A stretch of DNA of 62,706 bases, the filler included, from Hausera hauseri (taxonomy: Eukaryota): the NCBI GenBank assembly GCA_046269625.1. It is 12 parts of 12 records of this genome, joined end to end, with 100 filler letters (N's around TTAATTAATTAA, not from the genome) between each part and the next. Parts side by side here need not be neighbours in the genome. Positions count along the whole stretch, not along the records: positions 28,727 to 33,851 come from JBJURY010327939.1; 11 more parts are not named here. One strand, given 5' to 3'. How positions within the stretch are numbered: position 1 is the stretch's first letter; each line of letters starts with the position of its first letter. The translations under genes and the position numbers were made by a program. Below, one piece after another: positions 8,021 to 55,180 of this stretch. The notes under the pieces are model-generated. The model saw only the letters and a program-made list of their open reading frames with translations. It did no database searches and had not been told where the DNA came from.

Positions 8021-11000
8021 AAAAATTTCCCAAAACCTACTACTGTCAATGAGTTACGCAGATTTTTAGGACTGGCAAATTATTATTGAAGTTTTATAAA
8101 GAATTTTAGTAAAATAGCCAAACCACTCTATGAATTATTACGTGAATATTTAGAAAAGGTAATATGGACAAGTGAGTGTAAAAAGGCCTTCGAAGACCCG
8201 AAAGAAAGATTATTAAATGCTTCATCCTGATTTATCTAGATATGACTAAACCATTTATATTGGCAAAGGACGCAAGCGATTATGGGGTAGGAGCGGTATT
8301 ATCACAAAAAGGCGAAGATGGCAAGAAACATCCAGTTGCTTATGCGTCGAGAAAACTAAATAAACAACAAAAGAAATATGCCGTTATTGAAAAGGAATTA
8401 TTAGCGGTGACATACTCTTTAGAAGTGTTCTCACCGTATATTAGTGAGAATAAACCATTGATAATATACCCAGACCATCGACCACTGCAATGGCTAAAGA
8501 AGAATGAGAACCTCAGTAGTAGGTTACTACGGTGGGCCTTAAAACTCCAACCTTATACGTTAGATTTTCAACACAAACCCTGCACACAAAATGCAAATGC
8601 GGATTATTTATCAAGAATGCCGAAGAAAGAGTTAGAAAAGAAAGAGGTGATTGCAGCGGTGTGGAGCATGGATGGATCCGCAGAAAGAATAAAAGATAAT
8701 CAAGAAGAAGATGAAGAAATAAAAGCTATTAGAAATTATATACAAAATAAAATCATATCCAAGGATAAAGAATTGGCTCGTCATCTAACTAGATTTAGCG
8801 ATACGTACGAAGAAAAAGATGGATTCTTATACTATATTCATCAAAATGGACCTGTACTAGTAATTCCAAAGAAGAATAGAGCGGTACTGCTAACCCAATA
8901 TCATAATGGATTACCAGAGTACATCAGTCAATGAGAAAAGCGATAAATAAATTAAAAAGGAAATACTTCTGGACTACAATAGCAAAGGATGTCAAAGATT
9001 GGTGTGACAGCTGCAAACTGTGTGCGAAACGAAAGAATACGGGATCCAAATTTAAAGCGCCCCTGAAAATATTGGACAATCCACCTGCCCCGTTTGAATT
9101 TACAGCAATAGATGTAACAGGACCTCTACCACTAACAAGAAACGGAAACAAATACATCCTGGTGTTTATAGATTATTTTACCTGATGGGTTGTTGCACTG
9201 CCTATGCCAGATATGAAAGCTGAAACGATAGCCGAAAAAGTTGTTGAAAACATCATATTTAATTGTAAAGCTCCTCGAATCGTGTTAACAGACCAAGCAT
9301 CCAATCTAACCGGTAATGCAAAGAAATCAGTATACGATATTATGAAGATATTAAAGTTGAGTCCAACTCCGTTTCATCAGGAAAACAACGGAATGGTTGA
9401 AAGGTATATAGGAGATTTGAATGAAAAGCTACAAACAGTAGTTAATGAAAGACAAGACGATTGGGATGAGTATATTAACGCATGTGTTTTTGTGACTCGA
9501 ACGTCTGTGCACTAAGCTACCAAAGAGACACCCTTTTATATGATGTACTTAAGAGATGCCAGATTACCCATTGATTTGGATTTCAATGTACTGCCTATAT
9601 CTCAGTTAATGGAAGTAGAGGAATATAAGCAGCTAATGCAGGAACGTCTCCAATTAGGGTATACCATAAGAAAAGATAAACAGAAGGAATATAAAATGAA
9701 ACACAAAAAGTATTATGACGAAAAGACAAAGAAGCCGGTAATCAAAGTGGGAGATAAAATGATGCTATACATGCCGTTAAATAAGAAAGGCAAGACATCC
9801 AAGCTGGACAGATCTTATAATGGACCGTATGAAGTAGAAAAAGTGGATTTGCCTAACATATGTTTAAAGAAGAATAATACTAGAATTAAAGTACATGTCA
9901 ACAGGTGTAAACCTGCGCCGAAGGAGAGCGGATTAAGAAACGACGAACAGGAACTAGTACGGGCCATCGAATTTAAAAAGGGAAGTAATAAAACTCAGAA
10001 TTATGACGTATTCAAATACCTATGTCTATTTGTTTTTATAGGGACACCAGGCCTGTTAGCTCAAACAACAAAACCACTGGATCCATGGATGAGAACATTT
10101 CCTTCAAATGAAACGTTAGAAAATAGCCTGATGAAAAGTGTTTATCATGAAATAACCTATACCAGGAAAGTCCAAAAAGGTATAAGCTTTATGATATTCG
10201 AAAGGTTACCCAACCAGTATATGATAGTAACTCAGATGATTACGAACAAAGCCCGAAACAACAAAAGTATGATTGCGGCCTTACTTATTGGAGGAACACG
10301 ACAGAATGCATAGTAGATGACCGCGGCAATTATCTCATATACTATACTCTCATCAAAAGACATAAGAACCATTATAAATGGCAATATACTAAGTGCCGAG
10401 GTATCATACAGGTTCCTAGTAGAAGGACAATGAATGTAACCAAATTAGATAAGATAATATTAACTCAACTCACTGTTAGGCCGATAGCATTTAAAGGTGG
10501 ACGAAGCTGCATCGAAATTAGAACAATGATAAAACTGGAAGAAAATAGAGTAATAAGTATAAGACTTACAGATGTAGAAAAGAAACAACAGATGACAACA
10601 AAATGCCAGTTAACTGACAAGCATCTCCAAGTCTGCTGTAATGCTTTACGGGGAAGAACCTATGACTTACAATGTAGGTTACTACAAAAGAATCGAGAGA
10701 GCGTTAAAAGTCAAACTTACCAAGGGCCTAGAACATATGTTCCACTCAAAAGTGTCATTGAATATGACGATGACCAGCAGCCCCATGTCACGACATCTCT
10801 TGTAAATTCTACGCTATCTAATAAAATAAATACAAACGTCGGAGAAATGACCGTTCTTATTCGGCCTCATGACTCGTCCTATTGTTACAAGCATTCCGTC
10901 TTAGAAAATGTCACAATATCTTCCACGCTGACTTCTTTAATCATAGCCACCCAACCTGAGTTAAATTTTTATAAAATTAAACTCACTTGTAAACTAGGTC

Positions 11001-11962
11001 AAAAGATAATAGCAAAAGGCACAATTACACCAGACGACACCGTAGTGCCGTGTGCCGACTTAAATCCAAATATGAAATATACGGTTACACTGCAACTATA
11101 TGGCGACGATAATACCATAATTTCTATTAAGTTACCGACAGCCTCAACGGAAAGCAAAATAAAGCAGGCAGTAGAAAATAAAAAGGTGAGTCTAAGTAAA
11201 AGTCCACCACTACCGAAAACGAGTTACACCCATTCCCGAATAGAACTGATCATAATTAGCACTGTATGTCCCATAATTTTCTTAATCACGTTAGCGTTTA
11301 TAATAAAACTAATTGTTTGTATAAGAAAACGTCGCAGACCAAACTGGGTTAGAATAGACATGCGACGCATACCAAATATTTTGGATACTGATAATCCAAG
11401 TTGACGATGGCTTCAGCAGATTGTTGTCGACAAAATCCGAGAAATTAAGATAACTGAATATTATTCATTTACCGTGAAAAATAATAAGTTTAAAATGACA
11501 ACGATTACCAAACCGAAATATATGATAACCGTTGTATTATATTTAAGATTTTGTGATATGGATATGACATTGATTTTTACAGCAATGGATATTCAGGCCG
11601 CGCAGCGCAGCACGAATTGGTACGAGAACGCCAAAAACCACCTGATAAATGCAAACTCTTGTAATCAATACTACATCCGAGTCAACGAAAATACTTACAG
11701 TCTCAATTATCCAATGATTCACCAAATACCCAATAATCTCAAAGGGTATTCAATGGGGAATCGATCATTGGCGTTAGTCCACATAACAAAGGCTACCTCA
11801 TTTCTTTCCGGATAAATTTCACAGTATTAATATTTATGACATCATCGGCAAATTCCAAATAAAAATAAAGGACATTAAAACAAATCAGCAAGGGGAATTA
11901 ATCAACTTGTATCCAAACCACGGAATGGCACTCCAATTCGAGGTAATCAAAAGAAATATTCT
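8021..11962 (+). mobile_element. Ty3/Gypsy element (family B): RT connection, RNase H and integrase followed by membrane-protein ORFs
   Basis: RNase H DASDYGVGAVLSQ..PVAYASRKL..EKELLA..DHRPLQWL..NADYLSR; integrase zinc finger (CDSCKLC) and core AIDVTGPLP..TDQ..NGMVER; GPY motif. Confidence 0.95.
10005..11404 (+). pseudogene. Env-position type I membrane protein: signal-like peptide, Cys-containing ectodomain with FN3-like module, TM helix, basic cytoplasmic tail
   Basis: VFKYLCLFVFIGTPGLLAQ lies in the integrase frame; the frame of ORF 10430 is open back to 10151; NVTISSTLTSLII..YKIKLTC..DLNPNMKYTVTLQLY fits FN3 LxPxTxYxVxV; TM IELIIISTVCPIIFLITLAFIIKLIVCI followed by RKRRR. Confidence 0.7.
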
Positions 11963-13044: not shown

Positions 13045-13587
13045 CTAGTATTTATTTGTTATTTCACTCATCGCAGAAATAAGCTGTTGTACTATTCTGA
13101 GCAAATCAGATACATGTTGAGTCATATATTGTAGGTGTTTCTTTTCTTCATTTTCTGAGTAGGGCTGGATTAATGGGTTCAATTCAAATTTGATTGTTAA
13201 GGTATCACTGGACAAAATTGAATCCAATTTTCTTAGTGGATAAAATGTTGGAAAACCAATTGCACTGTTGCGTCCACTTTCGGGTTTCATGTAACATACA
13301 TAACTGCTATCTGTTTGTATTCTGTCTGAGCATATGACAGCACCTTGTTCATCCAATAGAGACATTTTTATTATTCCACGAAAAGGCCATTCCAACGTTT
13401 CATCATCTTCACCTTTCACCAAAGCAAAAAATACCGATAAATGTGTATATCTGCCAACACCGTCACCTTCCGGATAGACTCTAATACAGAATTGGTACCC
13501 ACTGATACTGAAAGTATCACTGATAATGACCATATTGTCTTTGCTTTTTTCGTTGAAGTTTGTTAATTTCCAAATATAGGTATTCAT
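13045..13587 (-). CDS. Intronless stand-alone TRAF-type MATH domain protein (180 aa)
   Basis: YIWKLTNF..SDTF..GYQFCIRVYPEGDG..THLSVFFALVKGEDDETLEWPF..IKMSLLD..GFPTF..DTLTIK; AATAAA at 13023-13028 on the minus strand. Confidence 0.88.
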   Translation of the reverse strand: MNTYIWKLTNFNEKSKDNMVIISDTFSISGYQFCIRVYPEGDGVGRYTHLSVFFALVKGEDDETLEWPFRGIIKMSLLDEQGAVICSDRIQTDSSYVCYMKPESGRNSAIGFPTFYPLRKLDSILSSDTLTIKFELNPLIQPYSENEEKKHLQYMTQHVSDLLRIVQQLISAMSEITNKY

Positions 13588-13617
13588 AATTAATGAAAAC
13601 AGGATATATGTACATGC

Positions 13618-13820: not shown

Positions 13821-14535
13821 ATAGAATGAACACGTATAATACACTTGTTGATATTTTGTGAATGTTTTTATTATTTAGTTGTTACAAATAAGACTAAGCA
13901 ATACAAATATTATTTAACAATTCTTCATCTAAAACAGCAAGCATATCAGCAATAACATACGATTGGTTAAATCAATAATGTTGCAATACTTTAGGTAATG
14001 TTACACACACACATTTAATACATATATTGTTAACACTAATGCACCTCATTAGTGACCACATATGTGGATTAATATGAAGCGAGAGTTAATCAGTCCTCAT
14101 TAGGGTATATATATTTTGATTTAGAATTTTCACGCGACTTTAATAATTTATTTACAAAAATTGCAAAACATGGAGAAGTTAGTGAAATTTTTATAACACA
14201 AAATCTATTTCATCAAGGATATTGTAAATAAATTATTAAAGTCTGCGTGAAAATTCTAAATCAAAATATATATACCCTAATGAGGACTGATTAACTCTTG
14301 CTTCATATTAATCCACATATGTGGTCACTAATAAGGTACATTAGTGTTAACAATATATGTATTAAATGTGTGTGTAACATTACCTAAAGTATTGCAATAT
14401 CATTGATTTAACCAATCGTATGTTATTGCTGATATGCGTGCTGTTTTAGATGAATAATTGTTAAAAAATATTTGTATTGCTTAGTCAAAAAACATTCAAA
14501 AATATCAACAAGTTTATTATACTTGTTCATTCTAT
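13821..14535. repeat. Long imperfect inverted repeat (foldback): arms 13821-14157 and 14222-14535, 64-nt loop
   Basis: Arms are reverse complements end to end (ATAGAATGAA/TTCATTCTAT outer; TAATAATTTATTTACAA/TTGTAAATAAATTATTA inner) with scattered mismatches and one about 20-nt indel. Confidence 0.95.
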
Positions 14536-16506: not shown

Positions 16507-19500
16507 CGGATAAACGCCTAGATGGCTCCAAAAATTTTAATCGACAGAATGACAGCCGAAATTACGATAATCGCCAATATGGAGACCTTAGACAGGCCCT
16601 GTCGCAGCGAGGTTACAATAGAAATCCGAGTAAATCAAAATCTCCATTAAATAAAGATGGCCGACAGAGGATCGGAAGAAACGGCAACTTAATTTGTTAT
16701 ACATGCGGACAAGAAGGACACATAGCGAGATCCTGTCCAAACCCGCGAAGTGTTTCGTTTGTCGAACCTAGTAAAAGTAATGTAATTAAAAACGAAAATT
16801 TAGAAGCAATTTACAATGTCCGTAGAGATACGAACATGATCATCGAGATACAAGATTTACGACATTTTTTAAAGGCCCAGCCTGATACTAAGGACCCCAA
16901 AGTTTTAGTGGTTAGAAACCAGTACGAACATAAGTTACGACTATTAGAAGTTTATCACGGTCTGCGCGAACCAAAAACGGAATATGAACGTTCCATTGCC
17001 CCACCAAGGCTGAGTAATATGGCATGGAAGAAGAATATTCCTACAATAAATAAAAAAGTCAGATGAAATGCGAAAACCTGAGAGCCCTGGCATGGTAGAT
17101 TTAAATGTAGAACCGGAGTATACTGTAAAAAAAGTAACCAAGGAGGCAGAGCTCGACGAAAAAGAAGAATTTCTAGAATCATTCATACTTAAAATTACGA
17201 AGAATAGGGGCCGTAGCCCATCAATGAGACGGAAACGCAAGGATCGCTCGAGATCCCCAATGATTAAGGAGAAGTCAGACACAAAGATAGAAACCGAAAT
17301 CGCGTTAGAAAGCGACACAGAGTGCGCCTCAAACGTTCCGGAAATTAATCTAGTTACGCAGAGCGAAATGGATGAGTCAACGAAATCTATAAATGAGATA
17401 AACGACATATGTCCCTTACCTACTAGCAAAGAGGAATTAGAACAAGAGAAACTCGATCCTAATAAGTGGAAAATCATGCGCTCGTCGACAAATGCCGATG
17501 AATTCAAAAGAATGAGGATAAACTGCTTCAATCCAGAGGTAGTGCGACAGAATCTGGAGAAACTTAAAGCAATAAGTAAGCAAGTAGATATTTCGGGCAA
17601 GTAACAGCAGTTTGTAGAGAGATTATATAAAAAGATGAAGCTATATAATGAAGGAAAACTAAGTGAAGCTATAGACTTAGATCAGCCTGAAGAAGTGGCA
17701 AAAGAAACACTAGTTCAATGGAAACGCGAATTAGAACGGTGGATTAAAACTGAGACGAAATTTCCGGAGACGTGGGATAAAACTACCCAAGACATTAAAA
17801 CTAGAATCAACCAGGCTCAGTCGCTATTGGCTACATTAGAAGCCAACCCGAAATTAAAAAGAGTAGTACGTAATTTGGAGCGTGTCACGAATGAAATTAG
17901 ATTTGCAATAGTCGAACGACTAAAAGGAAAGCCGGTCAAGGAACGAGATGCAGATGAGCTACAGATATTGGGCATAAACCCAGTAGATATTCCACCTTTA
18001 ATGGATATGACAAAAGTCGCTTCGACAGCCTCCAAGCAATATAATAGTTTGCAAAATCGTATTTAAATTAAAGCCGAAAAACGGTCGCAGAAATATGGTC
18101 TAAGGAACAGAATTATGCACACCAATAGCGAAGAAACACCCAAAATAATTATGGTTTGTATCATCGAGTTCGATGAATATAAGGATGAATTTGACCATGC
18201 CTGCCGGATCATCGATTTTATTAAAGGTCCAGATGATGAACTAGAAGATGCTCGCAAAATGTTAAACACAGCAATCTTGGCGAAACCAGAAATCGCTAAT
18301 CAGTTGAACGAATGGTCTAAAGTAATAATAAGGTTAAGCGAATTAATAAACAGACGGAAGAATGAATATTCGGAGAGCGAACCTACAGTAAAAATGCAAC
18401 TGGAAGAAGACGTCTGAAATCTAGATACGATGAAAGCAGAAATTGACATCCGAATCCAATTCGAGGCACTGCGTCAATTGGACTTTATGGAAAAGAAACA
18501 GGAGTTAATGATACTAGATGATATATATAAGATAATCGAAGAAACAAACTTCATGCGAAAGCGAAATGCGATTTGTGATTTCTATCCGCGATTAAGAGAT
18601 GTTCGCCTAAAGAGAATACAATAGTTGACAGCCAAACCTACCGAAGAAATCTCGATCCGAGATATTAAAACCTTAGACTGTTGTCCCGAATGCCGGTTAG
18701 TCGTGGAAGAAGCGGTTAAGTTCTTACATCGTCCCCAAGAATGGACAGATGGAACGGATCAAAGACTTCATAACGAACTAAGTAAAATAAATAACGACCG
18801 CCACCTTAATTTTGAAGAGATTAAATTTGTAAAACAATTATTAGATGCGATCGATCCAGATTCAAACAGCATTAACGAGATGTACGAATTAGCGCTATTG
18901 ATGGCGGAAATGGCAGAAATTAGTGACAAAAATCTAAAACAATTGTTGCAGCAGATACAGCAAGTCGAAGAAACTTGCACGAGGACGAAACAGAAAGCGA
19001 TGAGATTATACGAATTAGCTAGAGAATTCGAAAACTATAAAAACAAATACGTCCTTACAGAAGCAGAAAAGGCTGACAGGTCACAATTCATTCAAAGATG
19101 GCAAAGAAATGTCACGTCTGAATTAACGAAATATCAAGAAAAAGGGTTAATTTCACCCGAAGAATTGTGTTCATTGTTAACACTACTTAACCAAACATCC
19201 GCTAATGGGCGATGTTTTCGAACGACGAAAATTGTCCAAATGCAACAGAAACTACAAGAACTCAGAAGAACTACACGGACCGCAGGTGTAGACAAGTCAA
19301 CTGATACACCGTCGAGGAGCTATCAACTGCTAAACGATGAAAACGAACCAGATTGGGAGGCACATTTAGACGCAATGATTGTCGAGAATCCGAAAACCCC
19401 AATACAATTGGATGAAATGGATGTATATTCTTCGGACCAGAGACTTAATGTAGGGATGCTTCTGGACCCAGTACAAACCGAGAAAGATTTAATTCAATTA

Positions 19501-21466
19501 ATTGAAGTAAACCTTACTGACAATCAACTAAGACAACTAGTTCCCACTTTAACTAAATTAACTAGCGAAGATACGATTTCTAGTACGGTACTTAAGCTTT
19601 TACTTAAGGAATATGCAAAATTATTAAAGGCAAAGGCAGAGGAAATGATCTCAGTAAAGATAACATCAGACTGGATAGACGAGGAGGAACAAGAGTTTAC
19701 TACTAACTCCCTTGTAAAGGATGTATTACTATGGATAAAGAACAATGGATACGCCCATAAGCTAAGCTATAGAGTCTATTTTAGATGAAGGATATTAGAC
19801 GAGTCAGAATTATTGATAGAAGTTGGAATTATTCCAGGTGAGGTAAACCGGTTAGTGGTAACTACGGCCATCAACGAAACAAAGAAGGAGGCTATAAGAA
19901 AGGCTAAAGCAGAACAACAGTTAGGACGAATAATAGGAGTCCGAGATGTAGCAGTATATTTCGAGTACCTGCAGACAGATGAAGATAATGAACAATACGA
20001 TAAAAATTTAGTGCCGATCAATGGCAGTACGCCTCCTGTGACAAAACCGAAGCATCATATCGGTAGGCCACGGAAGATACGAGACGAAATCGACTATAAT
20101 AAGGACCTAATCAAAGAATTGAGACAAATGTCCATACCAAGTTTCAATGCGGATAATGAGGAATTAAACAAACTGATGAAAGATTTGATACGAATAGTAA
20201 ACCACACTAATCTCGGCAGTGATATAGTAGGTGAGAAGGAAAAGGCCATAGCAAACACCGCAAAGGCTATGAAAGGTCTTCGGTGTAAATTAACCAGAAG
20301 TACTTTAAGTGATGAAATGACAATCGAGAAAATTATGGTAGAAATTACCATAGAGGAATTGAAAAAAGTGTTGCTATATCTGGCCATCAAAACCAACCAG
20401 AACCGGGAAAATGAATTTAACAAGGCTACCAGCTTGGCAAGGAAGGCCGCAAGGAAATTACGTCGAGAAGTGAACTGGTCTAAGTTATTCGAAAAAGAGG
20501 AAGAACATCAGAATAGATTATTCTTCGATAACAATAGATTCGGAGATCTACTTCAGAATGCAACCGGAAATTTCAAAGGAAATGAATCGAACTGGCTAAT
20601 CAACTTTCTGACCATGATGATGTTGATAAGACAAAAGGGCGAAGTTACAGTATATGATTGTGACAAATTTAAATTGGGCCAAAAATACTCATTAATGGAC
20701 TTAGAAATGTGCGAAGATGCAAGGCCCTACAAATTAGAAACAAAGGAGAAAAGTTATATATTTTATCAACAACGCGAACTATTTACCTGGGACGGAGTAG
20801 AATGTATGTTACGGCAATCTCGCATCATCTTTTATTGTGGACTTGTACATGGGCACTCGTTAATAATTAAGCCAACAACCCCACTAATTCCGATAAATTT
20901 AGAGCGACAACATTGTAAGCAAGCTAGATAAACAAGGAAAATAAAATGGGATGGTATGGAATTGGAAATGCAGCAAGCGAAAATAATCAGAATGTACAAA
21001 GTGGCAGCAGGAAGGCTGTTTATGCACACCGGACATTATTATGGTGCGGAATACGATATCGGAAAAGGATTAGAGTCAAACATCGTAGTAGTGGATTTTT
21101 ACGAAACCGAAATGCGTATACAGAAAGTGACGCTTCATAGCATTACCAAACTTTACACGGAAAACCATAAGTGCCATATTCAGGATGGCACATGCTCGTT
21201 TCGAAGTTCCGTAGTAATTTGGGAACCCCCAGCCAAAACCGAGTGCAACTTTATCAGAATTAAAGAACTTAAATTCAACGAGACAATAGGAAAACGATAC
21301 ATAAGTAGCATGGAAACTAACTCTGAAACACGAAAAGATATAGCTAAATATTCCACACTTACGATAATGATTTCTGATACTCATGGATTAAAATTTGTAA
21401 AGAAAGCTATGCTCACCAGATGCGACGTCGTAATGTATGCCGCTAACTATGAAGCATTTTTTGTAA
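16507..21466 (+). mobile_element. Decayed retroelement-like polyprotein: Gag CCHC knuckle, about 1,250-aa helical region, signal peptide, chuvirus-like glycoprotein; no pol domains
   Basis: CYTCGQEGHIARSCP at 16695; ORFs 17068, 17635, 18115, 18430, 18625, 19813 and 20956 share one frame, separated by single stops; one frameshift in the A6 run near 17055. Confidence 0.8.
20590..21466 (+). pseudogene. Chuvirus (Jingchuvirales)-like fusion glycoprotein, N-terminal half
   Basis: Hydrophobic WLINFLTMMMLI then VYDC..YSL..C..YQQ..EC..FYCG..HS..C..CHIQDGTC..VIW..C, the Cys/motif spacing I recognise from chuviral G proteins. Confidence 0.75.
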
Positions 21467-21566: not shown

Positions 21567-23670
21567 TCGACGGTGTGGCGTTTGACACCTCCAAACCTAA
21601 TAATCCTAAAGTCATCCTTTCTGAATCGCTTCAAAAAGAAGCATTCAATAGCATCCATTTGTTGCATCATCCTTGTGGCAAGGCTACTTTTCGACTCTTA
21701 CAACGCCAAGTAGTATGGCCGTCGATGCGCACTGACGTGCAGACATGGGTTAGGCAGTGTGTGGCATGCCAAAAATACAAAGTTACTAAGCATTTAAAGC
21801 CACCACTATATCATTTTCGCTGCATGTCTCGTTTTGAATCTGTTCATATTGATCTTGTAGGCCCACTACCCTTAGACAACGTCCATCAGTTCATCCTCAC
21901 AATGATGGACCGTTCCTCGCGGTGGCCAGAGGCAGTCCCGATTCGGAGCACTAACACAGAAACCATCGCAGACGTTTTCATCCGCACTTGGATCAGCAGG
22001 TTTGGACCACCTCGCTACATCTTTCGGACCAAGGCCCACAGTTCGAATCCAATCTGCTTAAAGCTCTTGTCAATCGATTGGGAATTTACCACATTTACAC
22101 GTCACCATATTATCCTCAATCGAATGGCCTTCTCGAACGCTTTTACCGAACGATTAAAACGTTTCTTAAAATCCTTGCTGAGTCCAATCGCCGTTGGACT
22201 ACACTCCTTCCGTACGTTCTACTTGGCTGGCGGAACACACCGTCTACTTCTACAAGCTGTTCACTTACAGAAGCATTATTTGGCACTTCCATTAGATAAT
22301 TATTCGAGCTGACTGAGCTGGACAATATTCTTAAGGAGAAAGCCATACAAGGGGCACAGAGACACTTTGTTGCGATCAGCAAAGACTCATTCTGTAGACT
22401 ATTACACGGAAATAAACTTTACATACCCGACGATTTATATACTCCCAAGTTAGTATGGCTGAAGAATCAGACGCCGTGTAATTTTTAACCTCAGTATGTT
22501 GGCCCTTACAAAGTAATTCATTTACACTTTCACAACATCATCATTCTCAAGGACGACAAAGAAGTAACAGTCCACATCAACAACGCTAAGCCGGCTTTCT
22601 TCATTGACGAAACGTCTCCCATCGAAACCACTTCTCCACCATCTTTACACGACGCGCAGCAATCCAACAATTCACCTTCCATCTCTGCTCAATTCTTTAA
22701 CCCACTTTCCCCTACGTTTTCTCCCAAGACTTCTACTTCAATTTTTTGACAGTTCAGCCTCTTTTTCCCCATCCAATTTTGCACCTTCAAGCCTTTTCAC
22801 ACCTCCTTCATCCCCTGGTGACAACCTCCTATCTTTTTTTACAAGACCTCCTCCGACAAACACCACTTCGACTTCACCAATTTCTCCATCTTCTTGCTCT
22901 CTTCCGTTTTGTCCCTCTTCGCCGTCTTTTCTCTCTCTCTCTCTCTCTCTCTTTCTCCTCCCATACCTTCCTTATTTTCGGCGCCCGCTTCCTCCCTCTC
23001 TCATCACACATCGTCTTTTACTCCTTTCATCTCCGCTTCGCAACTTCCTTCTCTCTCTACTCCTATCCCTATCTTTCTTCCTCTCTCTACTACTACCTGC
23101 TTTATCCTCTACTTCTACTCTTTCACCTAACGCAATTTCAATTTCTACTTCAATTTCCGTCACTCCTCCTTCATCCGCTACTTCACCTTTTTTCACTCCT
23201 TCGTCTTCTAACCCTCTCTCAAACACCTTTAACCGTCCATCTTCACCAATCACTCTTCCTGGTTCACCTTCTTCTTCTCTTCATTCTAATTTGTCTTTGC
23301 ACGACACAACACTCACAACAAAGTCTGACAATTTTTCCCCAATTTCAACCTCTGCAAGCAAACACACCGCAGAAAGATAAAACAAGCAGAGTCACATTTA
23401 GCAAGTACAGCAAGGAAAAATCAGTAGAAGGCACCCAACGTCTTGCTCACATTAAGACAAACTGACACAAACACTTTTTCTTTTGGCGATTTTTTCTTTC
23501 TGTCTCTTTTACTCTTTATAGTTTTCGCTTTGCCACGGGGGGTTGATGTAATGCCCACAGAGGCCGGTGACCTTTGGTCCACTTGGTTGGGCACGGCCGG
23601 GCGTCCGTTGCCATCGCGTCGGATACTTAGTCGGGTCCGACTCCCCTCGAAAGTTGGAATTAAAATATCC
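21567..23670 (+). mobile_element. CsRn1-like Ty3/Gypsy copy 2: integrase, S/P/T-rich tail, PPT, 3' LTR start
   Basis: HHPC..W..CVACQK, HIDLVGPLP..DRSSRWPEAVP, SDQGPQFES, NGLLER; G6 PPT at 23537-23542 then TGTAATG at 23547; collinear with 1190-3330. Confidence 0.93.
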
Positions 23671-28726: not shown

Positions 28727-31700
28727 TCAGAATTATAAACAGTTTTTAACTGATTTTTCAGTATTACCCGATTTATAAATTAATATAAATTAAACACCTT
28801 TTCCAAAAATTCTAAAAACATATGCCAAATTATTACTAAATTCCTTCATTATATTTGTACAAATTCCTAAGTTTGTACAATAATGAGAAAAAGCCATAAA
28901 ATAATAATTATTTACGATATGCTGTTTATATCAGTATTTACAAATTTTAGACGTCTTTACAACATTGGACGTCTGTACAACATTTCTCCTCCCTGAGCGG
29001 CATCCTTGGATGTACCCATTGGATCTAGAGAGATGATGCCATTATCTGGTCGTCTAAGGAGATTTATTTGTCGACGTAAACTAATTTCGGCTTCCGTATT
29101 AGGCTGAGTTTCTCAGAAATCCGTTTCTAATTCATAACTGTAATGAGGTCTTATGAGGACTACACGGGTGTAACTATCGTTTGAAAAATATTTCAGTTCA
29201 GTTGCTTCAACCCGACACGCTGGACGTGTAGTTTTGCCGTTGTCTAGAGTTCATTTTCTCAAGCAATCTCGGCAATATTTATGTCGACAATCGTGGTTAT
29301 CTAGAACGACGTATCCTTGACTGAGATTCGCTTCACATACTGGGTATTCGTTCTCTTCTTTATCCCATTCTCATCGTCTAAATCTACTTTTATTATGAGT
29401 TCGATGGGTTCGAATATGATATCATATTTATCTTGGTATAGGTAACCATGAATCCTCTTTTGTTTGCGGTTTAAGGAACTCTTTTTGGGATTACAACCTA
29501 CTGGTACTAATGTCCAATCAGCAATGGTATCTCGATCTAATCCGGGAATTTCACCATCCGTTTGATACTTTTGATATTGTTTCTTTAACAAAGCTTTCAT
29601 TTGCTTGTCCATGATACTGTTAACCTACCGTTTCTTTTTGATTGAAAAACTGGTGTGATATATTTTCCTATTTTAGGGTTTTCCCAAATGTACGTGTTTT
29701 CATATACTTCTCGAGCTAGTGTGGTCTTAACGAAAAACATCGTTTCTTTCATTTTTTGGTGATTATAATATTCTGTGGTTACTAGCATTTTCGGGTAATC
29801 TTTAGTAGTTGCAAAGTGTACTTCTTCGGAATTCCTTTTTCTAAGGATATTTACTTCTGTGAACAGTTGCTGAAATCCGCTTTCTGGGTTCTTGTGTTTG
29901 TATATCGATCTTTTGGGTTTTTCTGGAATTGTCATCTGGTTATTTGCGGATGTAGTTGGGATTTCTCTTGATGTCGCCGAAATTCCGGGTTCCTCGCCGT
30001 TTTATTGGTTCGATCCTATTGTACTTGGGTTGAGCTCGTTTCTTTGTTTTTCTCCCTAAACAAGTAATCATAGAGGGATAATTTTCTTTTAATCGAGGAA
30101 ATTTGTGTTCCAGCCTTCTTCTTGTTTGGTAGAATTTGTGGAACCTTGAATGCCTCAATTGCGGTTTTCTTATTGATTATTAATTCTATTTTCTCAGCTG
30201 ATTTTTCAGTGGGAATTTTGGATTTAACGTGGGTATTATGACTGATGCTGGACATATTGGCACATGGTTGATCGAATTTCCTAATGGTTATCTTTATGTC
30301 ATCTTGTATAGGTTCAACGATTCTTCAAGGAGAATATGAATGGTACTGCTTCCGATACTTTTTTCTTATAGTTTCCAGATCTGACGGGCTTCGTAAATTT
30401 TTTTCTGGATTGCTGGGTGTCCACTCATGGTACCAATTTAAAGCTACACAAATATCGCGCAAGTATTGAGTGCGTTGACTTGCGGTTAACAGTTTGTTAA
30501 TCTTAACATGTTCCTTGTTCATGGTGTCAACCATTAATTTGAAATAGGTATCCATAACTTTCGGCATAGGGTAATTCCTTTCTCGCAATATTCGTTTAGT
30601 TTGTTCGGCGACTACTGGGTGTGTCCCTATCTCATGCATTCCAGCGATGCTTGAGCTGGGTATTTCTATTAATTCAACAATCCTGTAAACTCGATATCCA
30701 GCGAGAATATATCCATATAAACAATATCCTAACTCGGCTAGGACAAGTTTTATGTCTCTGCCTCTCGGGCGCGTTTCTTTGTGAATTCTTCTCGTATCGT
30801 ATTGTTTCACGAACGCGTTTTCTCGGACTAATAATCGTACAATATACTTCCGTTCCGTGGGTTTGTCGAATCGAGACTTCCATAGAAATGTTTTGCGCAT
30901 CATTTCCTTCTCCATAATTGATTGCTATGATTCTTGTATTTCTGGCAGAATTTTAAAGGTGGTAGTTGGATATAGTAATCGTCGTAAGTTACAGTGCTAG
31001 AACTATCTGAACGTATGAGATCTGTCTGAGAATTATTGAAAAAGTTTTTTTCTCGTGTTGTCGTAAATTGTAACGTTTATTGAGTCGTATATCTATCTTA
31101 ACGACTGTTTGTACTGATATGACCTTTTCCTTTAAATTCTTACTGATGTATACCGTAGTCGGCGTAACTTTAGTAACTTTGTTTGGTCCTCTGTCTGTAC
31201 GAATCAGTTTTAACGACGTTCCTTTCTTAGCTACCGGGTAATGTACATAAACCCAGTTTCCTTATTCTAAATCGTGTGGCTTCGCTTTCTTATCATATTG
31301 CTTATTAAACTGTTCTTGATATTCTTGCGATAATTCTTTGGCGATTTCCCAACATTTGTGTAGTCGTGTCTGTAGCACTTCTGCAAAATTTTGTTCTAAA
31401 TCTTCGGGGATTATTGTGTATGGTGTCATTCCTAAATCTGTTAATAACACAGCTTCACGTCCGCACATCATGAAGAACGGTGTAAATCCTGTCGCTGGAT
31501 GTGGTGTAGTATTAATGGCAAATTGAGTTCCTTCTAAAAATTCGTCCCAATCTTTTTGGTCCTTGGTTACTACTGTGGATAATATGCGTATGGCGGTTGC
31601 ATTCATTCGTTCAACCACTCCATTACATTGAGGATGGTGTGCGGTTGTAGTTAACCTATCAATCTCAATTATTTTAATAATTTTCTCAAACTGTTCACTG

Positions 31701-33851
31701 GTGAAGTTTCTTCCTCGATCTGTCAGTATCTGATTTGGGGGTCCATAACGACAAATTATTCTTCTTACTACAGCTTCTGCCAAAGTTTCTGCCTTTTGGT
31801 CAGTCACAGCTACTAACTCGACAAACTGAGTTAGCCTATCAATACAAGTCAAGATATACTTATTATTTTTGTGGGTCGTAGGTAGCGGTCCTACAATGTC
31901 CACTGACATGGCTTGCATAGGTCTGTCTGGTACGGCAATTGGTTTTAGCTCTGCCATGTAGTTCTTCGTCTTTTCTGCTTAGTCGTATATAGTTCACAAG
32001 CACTTACCCCATTCTTTACATAAATGTAGATACTGGGCCAAAAGTATTTATTCAATATTATTTCCAGCATCTTTTTCCATGACATGTGTCCTGCTAAATA
32101 TGACTCATGTTCTGCCACTAAAACGTCGGTGAGTAACCTTGTTTGGATGACGTAATTTCCTTCCTTTTCGTTCATAGTACAAAATGTCTTTATGACCATT
32201 ATCGTTCAAGACACAATATTTGTGTCCATTCCTGTGTAGATGTTTCCTAATCTGTCGTCCTCTTGGCACTGTATCCTTTTTAACAAATTCTATAATCTGC
32301 TGGATAACTTTATCCCTCTTCCGTTCGGTTGAAATTTTCATCGCTTTGTCCATCGTCAAAGCGCGTTGATGGACTATTAATTCTTCAAGCTGAGGTTTCT
32401 TCATTACCGTTATTGCACTTGTCTTAGTTTTTAGTCTTGATAGTGTGTCAGCATTTCCATGTTTGTTTCCCGATTTATACTGAAATTCAATATTATATCT
32501 AGAAATTTCTTCAATCCATCTGTCAAGTCTACATGTCGAATTATTTTCTCGTCCTTTTAAGGTCGTGACGGCTTTGTTATCAGTAACAATTATGATTTTC
32601 TGCCCGTATACATAAACATTAAAATATCGCAGCGCTTCTTTAACGGCTAAAGTTTCTAATTCAATAACGGAATAATTCATTTCGCCTTTCTTCAAGGAAC
32701 GTCCTCCATAAACGATTGGGTGCTCTAAATATTCGTCCTCTCGTTTCGGAGCTAATTCATATCCGATACTTCCTTTATTGGCATCTGTCTTAATTATGAA
32801 TAGTAAATTGAAGTCTGGATATCGTAAAACTGGTTCTCTTGTTAGGGTTTCTTTCATTTCGTTGAAGGCCTTTTATTTTACGTCTGTCCATTCCCATTTA
32901 ATTCCTCTCTTAAGTAGACTATATAAAGGTTCATTAATTTTCGAATTATGTGGCACATACGTGGCGTAATATCGACAAAAACCTATCCAGTGTCTTAACT
33001 CTTTTTGATTTTGCAGTTTAATGTAACCTGATATCTTGTTCAATAATGATTTATTTGGTTTTGTTCCTCCTTCTCCAACTACATGGCCAAAGTAAGATAC
33101 TGCATTTTGAGACAATTTACATTTCTTTGGTTCAATTTTAATTCTGCTTGTTCTAATCGCATTATGGTGTGCTCAATGTACTTTAAGTGTTCCTCTTCTG
33201 TCATCGATGCTATCATTACATTATCTAAATATGAAAAAGCGTGGTCTTGACCCATTAACATTTTATTCATCATTCATGTAAAAATAGCTGGTCCAATGGT
33301 GATACCAAATGGCATTACATTAAATTCATAAACACAATCTTGCTTTTTAAACGCGGTTTTATAGCGGTCTTCATTCTCGATTTCCACTTGCCAATATCCA
33401 GATTGTAAGTCCAGAGTAGTAAACCATTTTTCTCCTGAAAGCCTATTTAAGGCTTCTTTTACTGACGGTAACGGGAAGGAATCCTTCACCAAAAAGTTAT
33501 TTAGTGCCCTGTAATCAATACAAAATCGATGTTTTGTAGTACATTTCTTTTTAACCTTAAGAATTGGCGATTACCAAGATCTATAGGTGGGCCAAATTAT
33601 ATCGACTTTAAGCATTTGTTCGACATCTTTTATTATCTCGGTTCTTAATGAATGTGGCGGAGTATATCAATTTGGCATCTTTTGATCTTTAAGGTCCATT
33701 TCCTCAATTAACCAAGGCTTTTTCTTAAGTGAAATAGTCAATTTTAAAGCTTTCGGTCTGTCGATATTTTCTTCGTATTTAGCAATGATTGATTTATAAC
33801 GGCATAATAATTTATAGAATCGGCAATAAGATTCAGGTGAAAACTTAGTTT
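28727..33851 (-). mobile_element. Ty3/Gypsy element (family C): RT-RH-IN, about 2 kb of extra coding sequence ending in a RING finger, PPT, 3' LTR (28982 to contig end)
   Basis: RT DLQSGYWQV..MPFG..YLDN; RH TDANK..ELETLA..NADTLSR; IN DIVGPLP..TDRGRNF..NGVVER; PPT AGGGAGGAGAAA (28983-28994) abutting TGTTG. Confidence 0.95.
29211..29346 (-). pseudogene. Degenerate C3HC4 RING finger
   Basis: (Y)PVC-x15-CRHKYCRDC-LRK*-TLDNGKTT-(R)PACR; the three deviations TAC, TGA and CGT are each one transition from TGC, TGG and TGT. Confidence 0.8.
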
Positions 33852-34933: not shown

Positions 34934-36421
34934 ATGGCGCAGAAACACGAGGAGCAGAATTGCCACAGTGTGATGCAGAATTATTTTGGATACCAACACA
35001 ATAAAACTCAATACTATGTATGTCCTGTATGTGAGGTAGTGTGTCGGACAGGTTACGAGGAATTTTACAACCAACATAAACAGCTTCTGCATTCGTTCAC
35101 AAAATTGAAGAAAGAAATATTCAACAATAATATGCATATGACAACAAGTGTCCTAAAAGTAAATCAGATGTGCGGTTCCTATGCTTGTTGCACATCCAAA
35201 GCACATAATCCGCAACAATGTCATGAAACGATGTAGCGATATTATGGATACAAATCCAAAATGATCCCATATTATATATATCCGGGATGCAAGACTGTAT
35301 GAGGTGCAGATTACATACAGTTCTATTATGATCACAAACATTATTTGAGTCACTTCTCATTAAAGTCCAAGAAGGCCATCTATAATAAGCAACAAAATAT
35401 TGATGCATCTGCTTCGCAGTATGATGCTTCGCAGTATTTTGCCTCGCATTATGCTGCAGGATCTGGTGCAGTAGCTGCGAAACATCTTAGAGAATTGAAA
35501 CACGCAGCCGCATCATGCGCATCAGGCCAATCAGTCGCATCAGGCCCATCACGCGCAGCGGCTCCAACAAAATGTCAAATACAGCGGCCAGTTGATGCGG
35601 CAGAATTAAAGAGAAAATGCCGCAGATATGTTATTGATGCAACTGGTTAAACAACCATCAAGGAGTTCCTGGAATATACAAAAGAAGAAACAGAGTGAAT
35701 TCTCCAGGACAACATAGCTGAGATCAAGGCCCTTAAAGTTAATATGAAACTGGAGGCCACATACATCAATGTTGATGGCGAGGAGTCCAAAAGGGCCTTC
35801 AAGACCAGAAATAGACCCATTTTTGAACCCACCAATATAGTAGAATGGCAGCATGAAGAGCATGCAAAGCTGATCCGTGAAGCTGAGGAGAGCCAGGATA
35901 AGAAGAGTGGATGGACTATGGCAACCATCAAGAGATTGCTTGTGTATGTGCACGAGCACTCCCACGCAGGGTAGTTCATATATTTAGCTTCCAGAATGGA
36001 TCGCTAAAAAGGAGCATGTGTCAATGTCCATAATAATGACAACATATGTTTCAAGTATGCCATTTTATGTAAACTCGTACGGGATCAAAAACATGTAGCA
36101 AATTGAGTTTGGCTATATAATAATCTGAAGCACAACTATGGCTTCCAATGTATTAAGTTCCCACCATCCATAGATGAAGTAAAGAAGTTCAGTCGAATCA
36201 ACAATATATCCATCAACATCATTGGATTGGATGATAAGGACAAATTCTATCCCCTGCAGATATATGCTACTGAATTGAAAGATTATAGGGATCTGCTCCT
36301 ACTAGGCGATGGAGAAAAGAAACATTATATATTGATCAAGAACTTTCAGCGTTTAGTCAGATCCCAAATTACGAAATGCACAACAAGATTCGAAATATGC
36401 AAACGATGCTTTTCCCTTTTC
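34934..36421 (+). pseudogene. Polinton/Maverick pPolB N-terminal part: zinc-finger-like region, terminal-protein region, vOTU-like protease
   Basis: SGWT..GSSYI..CVNVHNNDNICFKYAIL..KFP..INNISINIIG..DLLLL..HYILIKNFQRL..ICKRCF. Confidence 0.8.
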
Positions 36422-38480
36422 AGTGGATTCCATAGCTCAGGATCTGACTCTTGTCATCCATCCAATCTATGCTTTTCTTGTGCAGTGTTACTGTATGAAT
36501 ATTAAGATCCTTATACTGCATCCTTTGCATCTCTGATATGATATGAGTCTGCTCCTGCAGAACTCTCACATAGTCATTGAAACCAATCTTCTTGGCCAAT
36601 GTAACACTTTGTATGCCCTTGGCTCTCTTTTTGATCTGACTACATATGTCCAGAACATAAATTTTGGACCTGAGAGCTACAAATATCGAGATGATTGCTC
36701 CATTCACCTCGTCTTTGAATTTTCCTAGGACTTTCTTATTGGCAATTGAATAGTTGGGATGATCCTTCGGATAGTCTGAGGTATCCATATGCTCTTCTAA
36801 CTGGGAAAAGTCCTCATAAATATCCTCTGTACAGATCTGATAGATAAAACTATCAGTATCCATATACATCAGCTGCATGGACTTGAACTTGGGGGCCATT
36901 ATGTCGCAATGGAATCTGTTCATTAGGGTTTTTGATAGATCCAATATTGTCATACCCACATATATAGGCTTGTTGAATACCAAGGATGTTTTAAGCATAT
37001 GGATGCTGACCAAGTTCTCAGCATATATGGTGTTTCTGTGGAAGTTGGACTTGGCAATGAGCTTCTCTCCCCGCTTCCACTCAGAGACAAATTCGATGCT
37101 GATCCTGTTGCGGATATTCTCCACGGTCCGAGACCGAGTTGTTGTAAAGTTTGAATTGATCTTTCTCAAAGTCTTTCTTGGCATTAGTCCGCAGCTTGGT
37201 ATTGAAATCTATGTATGACTGTAGCCACATGGATTGGCTAAAATGGAGAGCTTTATAGATCTTAGTAATACAAACCCATGTCTAACTGACTGCTGGAGAT
37301 TGATGTAGTGGACTACATACCTCTCCCTATTACCCAGATAACAGAGCAACTATCTCTGCTTTCCATGGGGCGGAGGTCTGCTCTCGGGGAGGAAAGGCCG
37401 CTGTTGATGCCTTGCGTGGATGGAAACCGGATATTCCATATCCACCTCCAGTATATAGTTCGTATCTCTAGTGGGATCCAGGATTAATATAAGGATGTTT
37501 TCAGGATTCTCGACCCATTTGAAATTATCATACGGCAATGGGGCGCTCATTGCATATCCATATAAGTTGTTGGCATCTAGGTATGATATATATAAGGATT
37601 CCTTGGATGGACCATACTGAGCCATATACTTGTTTTTGGCCTCACTATACCGGTGAATGGCCTGACATATTCCGCCTTTAATGTCTCTCTCGATCATAAG
37701 GATCACGTCGTAATCCTTGATGATCTGCTTACTTATGCCTGTATATCTCACTATATCTGCCCAGCTCTTCTCTGGAGTCGTAAAGAAATGAGCCAGATTC
37801 AAAATATGGATCTTAATTGTAACATCCCTGAAGCTCTCAAAGGCATCTGTCAGAAGCAGCACGTACGTCTTGAGGTATATGTCGCTGTATTCCCCTAATA
37901 TTCGGCATTGGAATGCATTCCAAACATTCTGGGCACGCTGGTAGTCAACATCACTGATATTGCAATCAGAGAGGGTATTGTAAAGTCCTTCTTTTCCAAC
38001 AATGAGGTTTCATTCAGTGTTTCCTATGAAGTTATATAGTCATAGGGAAACGCCTTTCCACTTGACGAGGTCAAAGGTAGTGGGGAAGTACCGCTTCGTC
38101 CCCTTGAGTTCTTTTGCAGGCAGGTTGTTTATTAAACTATACATCTATAAGCTCATGAAGCGGAAGCTGTCTATGAAGCGAAGTCGGATTTTACCAACAT
38201 GTTTAGTGAAAGTGATGTATTTTTCCTCACTATTGGGAATGACGTCAATGTTTTTTTCAATGCTGCCCAGTTCCCGAACAATGAAGTGGGAATCTTAGCC
38301 ACTGAGATTATGGAACACTATAGGCATATATGTACATGTTTTGCAACGCAGATTGTAGTTGTTGCATGCTGCACCTTAATATGTGCCTGTAAAATGGCAA
38401 TGATGCCTTACTTTATTATTATCCTTAATGAATGATTTTGAGTACAAATAACATGTTTTTGCCTTGCACCATTCTTCTTC
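36420..38480 (-). pseudogene. Polinton/Maverick protein-primed DNA polymerase B, C-terminal part (HNH/EndoVII insert, exonuclease, polymerase), inverted relative to its N-terminus
   Basis: KVRHHCHFTG..GAAC..NL, FHNLSG*DSHF, YLDANNLYGYAMS, KPIYVGMTILDLSK, YMDTDS, KKVLGKFKDE, KRAKGI, DDK. Confidence 0.93.
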
Positions 38481-54619: not shown

Positions 54620-55180
54620 ATGCTCATCTACAAAGATCTGATTTCAGGTTTGTTTAATTCATAAGTCTATGAAATATTTAAACTCATCTTTACAGGAGAT
54701 GAATTGTGCTCTGATTCATACCCAAGAAAACTCGTCGATGATATTGTCTACGAATTCGACGGTAAACGTATCTCCGTTTCCAATGGCATTTCCGATGCTG
54801 CCATTGGTGGTAATGCATCAGCTGAAGGTGAAGATGATGAGGAAGTTGCCGATGCCGCTGAAACACACATCAACATTGTCTACTCTCACAAGTTGACCGA
54901 AATGTCATTCGACAAAAAGAGCTACACCAAATATATCAAAGATTACATGAAGACCTTGTTGGAAAAACTGAAGGCCACCAATCCGGAACGGGCTGAATTA
55001 TTCAAGGAAAAGGCTCAGAAATATGTTGTCCGTATTCTGAAGAATTTTGATGAATACCAATTCTACGTTGGTGAATCAATGAACCCGGAAGGCATGGTCG
55101 TTCTCTGCAATTACCGAGAAGATCAAGTTACTCCATATTTCGCCATGTTTAAGGATGGTCTTGAGGAAGAAAAATACTGA
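54620..55180 (+). CDS. TCTP: Translationally controlled tumour protein; exons 54620-54647 and 54696-55180 (170 aa)
   Basis: MLIYKDLISG|DELCSDSY..IGGNASAEG..FDKKSYTKYIKDYMK..FYVGESMNPEGMV..FKDGLEEEKY; 48-nt GT-AG intron after the 28-nt first exon; AATAAA at 55181. Confidence 0.97.

Follow-up and report, generated by a model that had tools for sequence, protein, structure and literature searches.

A Ty3/Gypsy retrotransposon of Hausera hauseri carries, between its integrase and its polypurine tract (PPT), an additional reading frame, ORF3, which ends in a C3HC4 RING finger, and on the evidence of its sequence we favor, with moderate confidence, the reading that ORF3 encodes a RING E3 ubiquitin ligase positioned by nucleic acid. 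The protein would consist, in order, of a catalytically dead DEDDh/DnaQ-like domain, a basic linker, a region referred to here as domain X, and the RING. To our knowledge, few proteins are known with which retrotransposons of animals oppose control by the host; a Gypsy ORF3 joining a likely nucleic-acid reader to a RING is a concrete and testable candidate, and its intact relative described below, P0003, could be assayed unaltered. The window, that is, the whole stretch of DNA analyzed (62.7 kb), consists of 12 short contigs with N linkers between them and is made up for the most part of repeats.

The RING-bearing copy lies in the contig at positions 28727–33851 of the window, on the minus strand, as do all of its features given below. 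Its pol gene retains a broken reverse transcriptase remnant (33205–33621), identified by tblastn with the corresponding piece of a metagenome Gypsy locus, L008 (43% identity, E 8e-33), and interrupted in that alignment by stops at 33573 and 33276. This is followed by an RNase H region (32108–32872; PF17919, E 1.2e-24, and PF17917, E 2.3e-24) and by an integrase core (31262–31978; PF00665, E 1.3e-15) with a premature stop at 31264 within the aligned stretch. The core continues in the same frame into a C-terminal tail (31050–31261, the lower end being approximate), and positions 31175–31345 were 42% identical (E 1e-7) to the integrase tail of L008, which itself matches Integrase_p58_C and SH3_Tf2-1; we take the tail of the window copy to be GPY/F-like. 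The assignment to Ty3/Gypsy was made because of the order of the pol domains, namely reverse transcriptase, RNase H, and integrase. The gag and protease regions of this copy fall past the contig end at 33851.

At the other end of the element, inspection of the sequence revealed a PPT of 12 purines (28983–28994) directly followed by TG, and the region 28727–28982 is probably the beginning of the 3' LTR, truncated by the end of the contig 255 bases past the LTR start. The 17-mer at the PPT/LTR junction occurred only once in the window, and no second copy of the LTR of 60 bases or more was found within the window. The first 18 bases of the LTR are tandemly duplicated with two differences (28948–28983). 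The pol gene is broken by four stops in aligned stretches and by three frame junctions judged by eye over about 2.6 kb, and ORF3 is broken by five stops and four frame junctions over 2.0 kb. The similar density of breaks in the two regions indicates, therefore, that the whole copy decayed together; the window copy is a pseudogene.

The accessory coding sequence between the integrase and the RING amounts to about 2 kb and is broken into ORFs at 30325–30924, 30016–30324, 29597–30001, and 29301–29624. A HMMER search of 1.84 billion protein representatives with the largest accessory piece, which does not include the RING, returned a single protein, P0003, of 870 amino acids (E 2.7e-27), a singleton from a 16,242-base ENA contig. 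P0003 matched all five pieces of the window copy in order, with identities of 30–49%, and the broken ORFs therefore represent one ORF3 that was very probably once functional. The first-pass annotation had reported broken ORFs of unknown type between the integrase and the PPT; the ORFs were indeed found at that place, whereas the description of their type can now be replaced by that of a single ORF3 with an exonuclease-like front and a RING at its end.

The first piece (30803–30967; P0003 residues 234–288, 49% identity, E 1e-14) covers the front of the DEDDh/DnaQ-like domain, including the motif I region; it contains a stop at 30955, and its alignment to the DnaQ structure 8h18 places other residues at the acidic positions. 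The second piece (30040–30798; P0003 291–565, 30–31%, E 2e-34) comprises the rest of the exonuclease-like domain and the basic linker, with a stop at 30327 and one conserved island in the linker. The linker contains 30 lysine or arginine residues in 145, including a KKRRK run that is possibly a nuclear signal. The island, in which basic residues are followed by SLYD (window 30100–30050; P0003 547–558), is kept in an otherwise divergent linker and may be a nuclear signal or a protein-binding motif. Domain X is divided between a third piece (29613–29857; P0003 573–663, 42%, E 5e-18), which holds its first half, and a fourth piece (29370–29612; P0003 665–742, 42%, E 1e-18), which holds its second half and adjoins the RING. 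Domain X (P0003 596–742) has no Pfam family, and a search of the Atlas with P0003 595–745 gave no usable match. The C-terminal region of P0003 (741–870) was 47% identical to the window translation (BLASTP, E 3e-33). After the RING, the ORF3 tail (28978–29214) reads through the PPT into the start of the LTR, with a stop at 29115, and 13 of the 29 residues just after the RING are identical to those of P0003.

The RING finger itself is broken and lies at 29215–29346. When the translation of 28963–29370 was searched with X at the stops, zf-C3HC4_2 and zf-C3HC4 matched with E values of 3.7e-4 and 6.1e-4, respectively; the latter match scored 20.0 bits, just below the cut-off of 21 bits. Identical residues were found at 29 of 45 positions in comparison with the RING of P0003. 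A six-frame search of the 62.7 kb window showed the RING core motif at a single place; because of this single occurrence and the 29/45 identity to an independent, intact protein, we do not regard the RING as a product of chance. Six of the eight ligand positions are kept relative to P0003, the losses being those of ligand 1 (codon at 29346) and ligand 7 (codon at 29226), so that the window copy falls short of the eight-ligand C3HC4 signature. The loop-2 proline and the arginine following it are retained, and the codon of the last RING ligand is separated from the PPT by 220 bases. These data agree with the first-pass annotation, which had placed a C3HC4 RING inside the Gypsy element about 220 bp before the PPT, here followed by TG, and had proposed that three single transitions would restore it; three departures of that kind are seen in the sequence. 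Its claim that the tryptophan position is retained proved incorrect for the window copy, in which this position (29253, in the helix) is a stop; the tryptophan is present in the relative P0003.

In P0003, the RING matched PF00097 with 30.8 bits (cut-off, 21) and contains all eight ligands. The tryptophan, the loop-2 proline, and the arginine after the last cysteine of a RING are the positions through which E3 ligases contact E2 and ubiquitin. All three are present in P0003 (Trp778, Pro788, and Arg791), in register with RLIM and other solved E3 RINGs. The best PDB matches of this RING were RLIM (E 1.6e-4), listerin, RING1B, Arkadia, and RNF4, with the CPxCR loop aligned.

The last six residues of P0003 are identical to the window translation across the PPT/LTR junction. 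This identity is best explained if P0003 derives from an element with the same PPT/LTR junction, and P0003, judging from its C-terminus, would thus lie in an LTR element. An ORF of 870 codons that stays open at 30–49% identity suggests selection, and ORF3 of this Gypsy family was very probably a working protein. No pol domain was detected in P0003 with Pfam, so that ORF3, as called, is not fused to pol in the element of P0003. In the window copy, the ORF3 front sits in the pol frame with two stops before it, an arrangement in which a fusion to pol and a loss of the 5' part of ORF3 look alike. Residues 1–233 of P0003 have no counterpart in the window and no Pfam match, and the start of P0003 may be a choice of the gene caller. 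Although the first 23 residues are hydrophobic, we rejected a signal peptide, since they include arginine and glutamate and a RING has to reside in the cytosol or the nucleus.

Searches for further relatives gave negative results within the following scopes. No cellular protein with the architecture of ORF3 was found among the 1.84 billion representatives at E 0.001. By word-index search, the RING piece had no relative among 177 longer candidates, P0003 240–870 returned itself only among 6416, and P0003 595–870 had none among 228 shorter proteins. None of the 159 pattern matches in metagenome contigs and none of the five in viral contigs was a relative of P0003; likewise, the window integrase had none among 20 in viral contigs, and an exact look-up of four window proteins in the protein collection returned none of the four.

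Other copies of the element were represented in a run, X1, which contains 0.38 of the sampled window words; it may derive from the source itself or from another individual of that species and is therefore not independent of the window. X1 contigs covered all 30 bins of the stretch. Among the differences listed (40 of 1263 base differences and 12 of 25 length differences, a set outside which the three RING breaks and the junction near 30800 fall), 19 to 29 contigs differed from the window at 29156, 29177, 29219, and 29422, in and beside the RING. One diverged contig spanned 29129–29466 and thus the whole RING, and another, spanning 29274–29869, links the RING with domain X. Length differences at 29367, 29611, and 29997 were carried by 6, 8, and 7 contigs (13%, 40%, and 35% of the depth), respectively. 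These sites coincide with three of the four frame junctions, as would fit one continuous ORF, although the length differences account for a minority of the depth. The RING is accordingly present in other copies as well as in P0003, and the first-pass annotation's concern that it might occur in this copy only was not borne out. That annotation had also called for the eight metal ligands in a consensus of copies: all eight were found in the distant relative P0003, whereas the ligand positions of same-family copies lie outside the listed data.

The front of ORF3 resembles DnaQ-type exonucleases. In a PDB search, P0003 246–345 matched DnaQ (8h18, E 8e-4) and the PolC exonuclease (2p1j, E 3e-3), and a three-row profile improved these values to 1e-4 and 4e-4. 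The same domain matched phrog_192, a polymerase exonuclease subunit, in PHROGs (E 1.1e-4), dnaQ/polC models of NCBIfam (E 0.004–0.011), and Pfam RNase_T (E 0.017). The Atlas returned RNase_T clusters (0.91, based on 164 shared features, which is below the 170 typical of true family matches) and the C-terminal domain of the arenavirus nucleoprotein (0.90). These exonuclease matches agree across five libraries, all being weak, below curated cut-offs, and restricted to the first 100 residues (motifs I–II); the window pieces alone had no match to an exonuclease in Pfam, NCBIfam, or PHROGs. When aligned with DnaQ, the window copy and P0003 have the same two residues in place of both motif I acids. 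The motif II acid was also lost, and motif III was not alignable by any tool. Three of the four acidic metal-ligand positions were thus replaced in this alignment, a pattern that departs from that of an active DEDDh nuclease. That two elements with differences at half of their residues share this loss points to a selected pseudo-nuclease, not to decay. Two AlphaFold predictions had pLDDT values of 30.9 and 37.5. Overall, these weak but agreeing matches suggest that the front of ORF3 is a DEDDh/DnaQ-like domain that is catalytically dead.

A strict RING motif was found in four of 61 metagenome loci with integrase relatives, namely L007, L008, L024, and L047. L007 and L008 are 93% alike and therefore belong to one family, which is Gypsy, with a chromodomain integrase, an env-like ORF recognized by eye, and a further ORF of 190 codons. 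Both loci contain an ORF of about 90 residues with C3HC4 spacing (L008:8684–9040 and L007:4442–4798), located about 220 bases before a purine tract followed by TG. This RING matched Pfam weakly (E 0.023–0.025) and is without the tryptophan; its ORF gave no alignment with P0003, and the sequences suggest that it was gained independently. That an unrelated Gypsy lineage also has a RING ORF at the corresponding position suggests that such ORFs are an accessory that recurs and has been overlooked. An interrupted remnant of the L007/L008 RING ORF was present in a further locus, L010. The small RING motifs at L024:1665–2171 and L047:151 were left out of the Gypsy count, as their neighbors look Polinton-like. 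A tblastn search at E 1 found no ORF3 relative in any of the 61 loci, the best of which reached 40% identity to the integrase.

Several other features of the window were recorded. A second Gypsy copy (8182–11815, plus strand) has RNase H and an integrase that is 37% identical to that of the RING-bearing copy; its 3' ORF is different and ends in a hydrophobic, env-like stretch. An intronless MATH/TRAF ORF (13045–13617, minus strand; PF22486, E 3e-29) lies among repeats and adjoins a near-perfect inverted repeat (13892–14486). A long, stop-broken frame (17050–21466, plus strand) bears a terminal fusion glycoprotein domain of the Monjiviricetes type (PF24664, E 5.4e-7). Broken ORFs at 36420–38300 (minus strand) had no Pfam match at E 0.01, and we presume from their motifs that they derive from a protein-primed B-family polymerase of Polintons. 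An intronless, open TCTP frame (54665–55180, plus strand; PF00838, E 2e-64) looks flatworm-like and may be a host gene or a retrocopy. Finally, an integrase-bearing repeat occurs in two contigs, inverted in one relative to the other (1210–3331 and 21567–23643, 79–95% alike).

Taken together, the E3-like RING, the nucleic-acid binding known for dead DEDD folds, and the basic linker suggest a ligase placed by nucleic acid. Dead DEDD folds in Maelstrom and EXD1 are described as keeping RNA binding in the sections of PMC5408684 consulted, and those of the PML-1 PXL domain and Exuperantia as binding single-stranded nucleic acid in those of bioRxiv 10.64898/2026.02.19.706916. The pseudo-nuclease of ORF3 would bind single-stranded RNA or DNA, either from the element (transcript or cDNA ends) or in a host small-RNA complex. 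A charged host E2 would be recruited by the RING, and proteins brought near by ORF3 would become ubiquitinated. Tentatively, the substrate could be a host silencing or restriction protein; a protein of the element itself, such as Gag or integrase, is a possible alternative. We offer with similar reserve the fuller proposal that the ligase strips host silencing or restriction proteins from element RNA or cDNA and that Gypsy elements acquired RING ORFs before the PPT on at least two occasions. Such a ligase would be the retrotransposon counterpart of viral anti-restriction ligases.

Some viral RINGs, for example that of arenavirus Z, are not ligases, and the RING of a functional ORF3 might instead be a zinc scaffold or dimerization module, leaving the pseudo-nuclease as the main actor, which could protect the 3' ends of RNA or cDNA against DEDD nucleases of the host or act as an RNP chaperone in the manner of Maelstrom, EXD1, or Exuperantia. 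The existence of RNA-binding dead DEDD domains (parts consulted of PMC5408684 and bioRxiv 10.64898/2026.02.19.706916) and the Atlas match to the arenavirus nucleoprotein are in keeping with this explanation, which we nevertheless consider rather unlikely, since Trp778, Pro788, and Arg791 are kept in P0003, and the proline and arginine in the window, positions that a scaffold would let drift. A nuclease that is active despite changes in its active site, fused to the RING and serving to process element RNA or cDNA at the 3' end or to destroy host small RNA or dsRNA signals, would have a parallel in the DEDD-type ORF3s of bdelloid LTR elements, which have intact catalytic residues according to the portion of PMC5408684 examined, and the failure of every tool to align motif III leaves room for it; however, with three of four acidic positions replaced, and motif I alike in both elements, it appears very improbable.

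LTR elements capture host sequence, and the window copy is fully broken, as would fit passively captured pieces of host mRNA without function for the element. We judge such a capture very improbable in view of the intact 870-residue relative at 30–49% identity, in which the domain order is kept and the domains are conserved around a divergent linker; moreover, no cellular protein of this architecture was found among the 1.84 billion representatives, and the ORF reads into the PPT. Alternatively, P0003 could be a host gene or belong to a non-LTR mobile element such as a Polinton, the window sequence being a secondary insertion into Gypsy; small RINGs do occur in Polintons, and RING motifs are present in L024 and L047, both of them Polinton-like loci. 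This would hardly account for P0003 ending exactly at the residues of the PPT/LTR junction, for X1 copies covering 30 of 30 bins of the stretch, or for the lack of flanking repeats marking an insertion, and it is the least credible of these explanations. The ligase placed by nucleic acid thus remains our preferred reading of ORF3.

Among known systems, the viral C3HC4 RING E3 ligases with E2-facing residues, herpesvirus ICP0 and poxvirus p28, resemble ORF3 as parasite-encoded proteins with a RING of this type; they belong to DNA viruses and are not known to have a pseudo-nuclease partner. The cellular proteins RLIM, listerin, RING1B, Arkadia, RNF4, and TRAF6 align with P0003 over the RING core only (E 1.6e-4 to 1.5e-3), and with the match limited to the RING, the sequences point to no nameable host gene as its donor. 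PML bears a RING. Its isoform PML-1 contains the PXL domain, a dead DEDD fold binding single-stranded RNA or DNA according to the part of bioRxiv 10.64898/2026.02.19.706916 consulted, and is a precedent for the combination of a pseudo-DEDD domain with a RING. PML-1 is, however, a host antiviral TRIM protein with an N-terminal RING, and the likeness to P0003 is one of analogy only; PXL was not among the best 60 PDB matches of P0003.

Closer in setting are the Juno and Vesta LTR elements of bdelloid rotifers, which, as far as the consulted text of PMC5408684 goes, share with the present element an extra ORF behind pol, a Gypsy-like element, and a fold of the DnaQ superfamily, and for whose ORF3 a non-envelope role was proposed. 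Their ORF3 is RNase D-like (DEDDy) with intact catalytic residues, whereas the domain found here is of the DnaQ/RNase T type (DEDDh-like) and has lost its acids; the window ORF3 also ends in a RING, a word absent from the main text of PMC5408684 on Juno and Vesta. In planarians, the giant Burro/GYPSM1 Gypsy elements encode domains of the ubiquitin and apoptosis systems (MATH/TRAF, BIR, ubiquitin-like, and BCL2), and interference with host ubiquitination and other host systems has been proposed for them; Burro encodes a giant polyprotein with MATH, BIR, BCL2, and an in-frame env upstream of pol (PMC6431247, sections consulted). The MATH ORF of the window and the frame that closes with a mononegavirus-type fusion domain recall the MATH ORFs and in-frame env of Burro. 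The Burro label "AIR1 with RING Zn-finger" derives from an AIR1 match and belongs to a polyprotein whose N-terminus resolves as Gag with CCHC knuckles, and neither a C3HC4 RING nor an exonuclease-like ORF behind the integrase is described for Burro in the same sections of PMC6431247; the comparison with Burro covers the 3' part only, the 5' part of the RING-bearing copy lying outside the contig. Literature searches limited to openly available full texts listed no LTR element that has either a C3HC4 RING or an ORF3 joining a pseudo-nuclease to a RING. DEDD ORF3s in rotifers and ubiquitin-system domains in Burro are thus known separately in the literature covered, and the combination of pseudo-nuclease and RING was not encountered there. 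A RING ORF3 would open to experiment the proposal, made in the part of PMC6431247 consulted, that Gypsy elements meddle with host ubiquitination.
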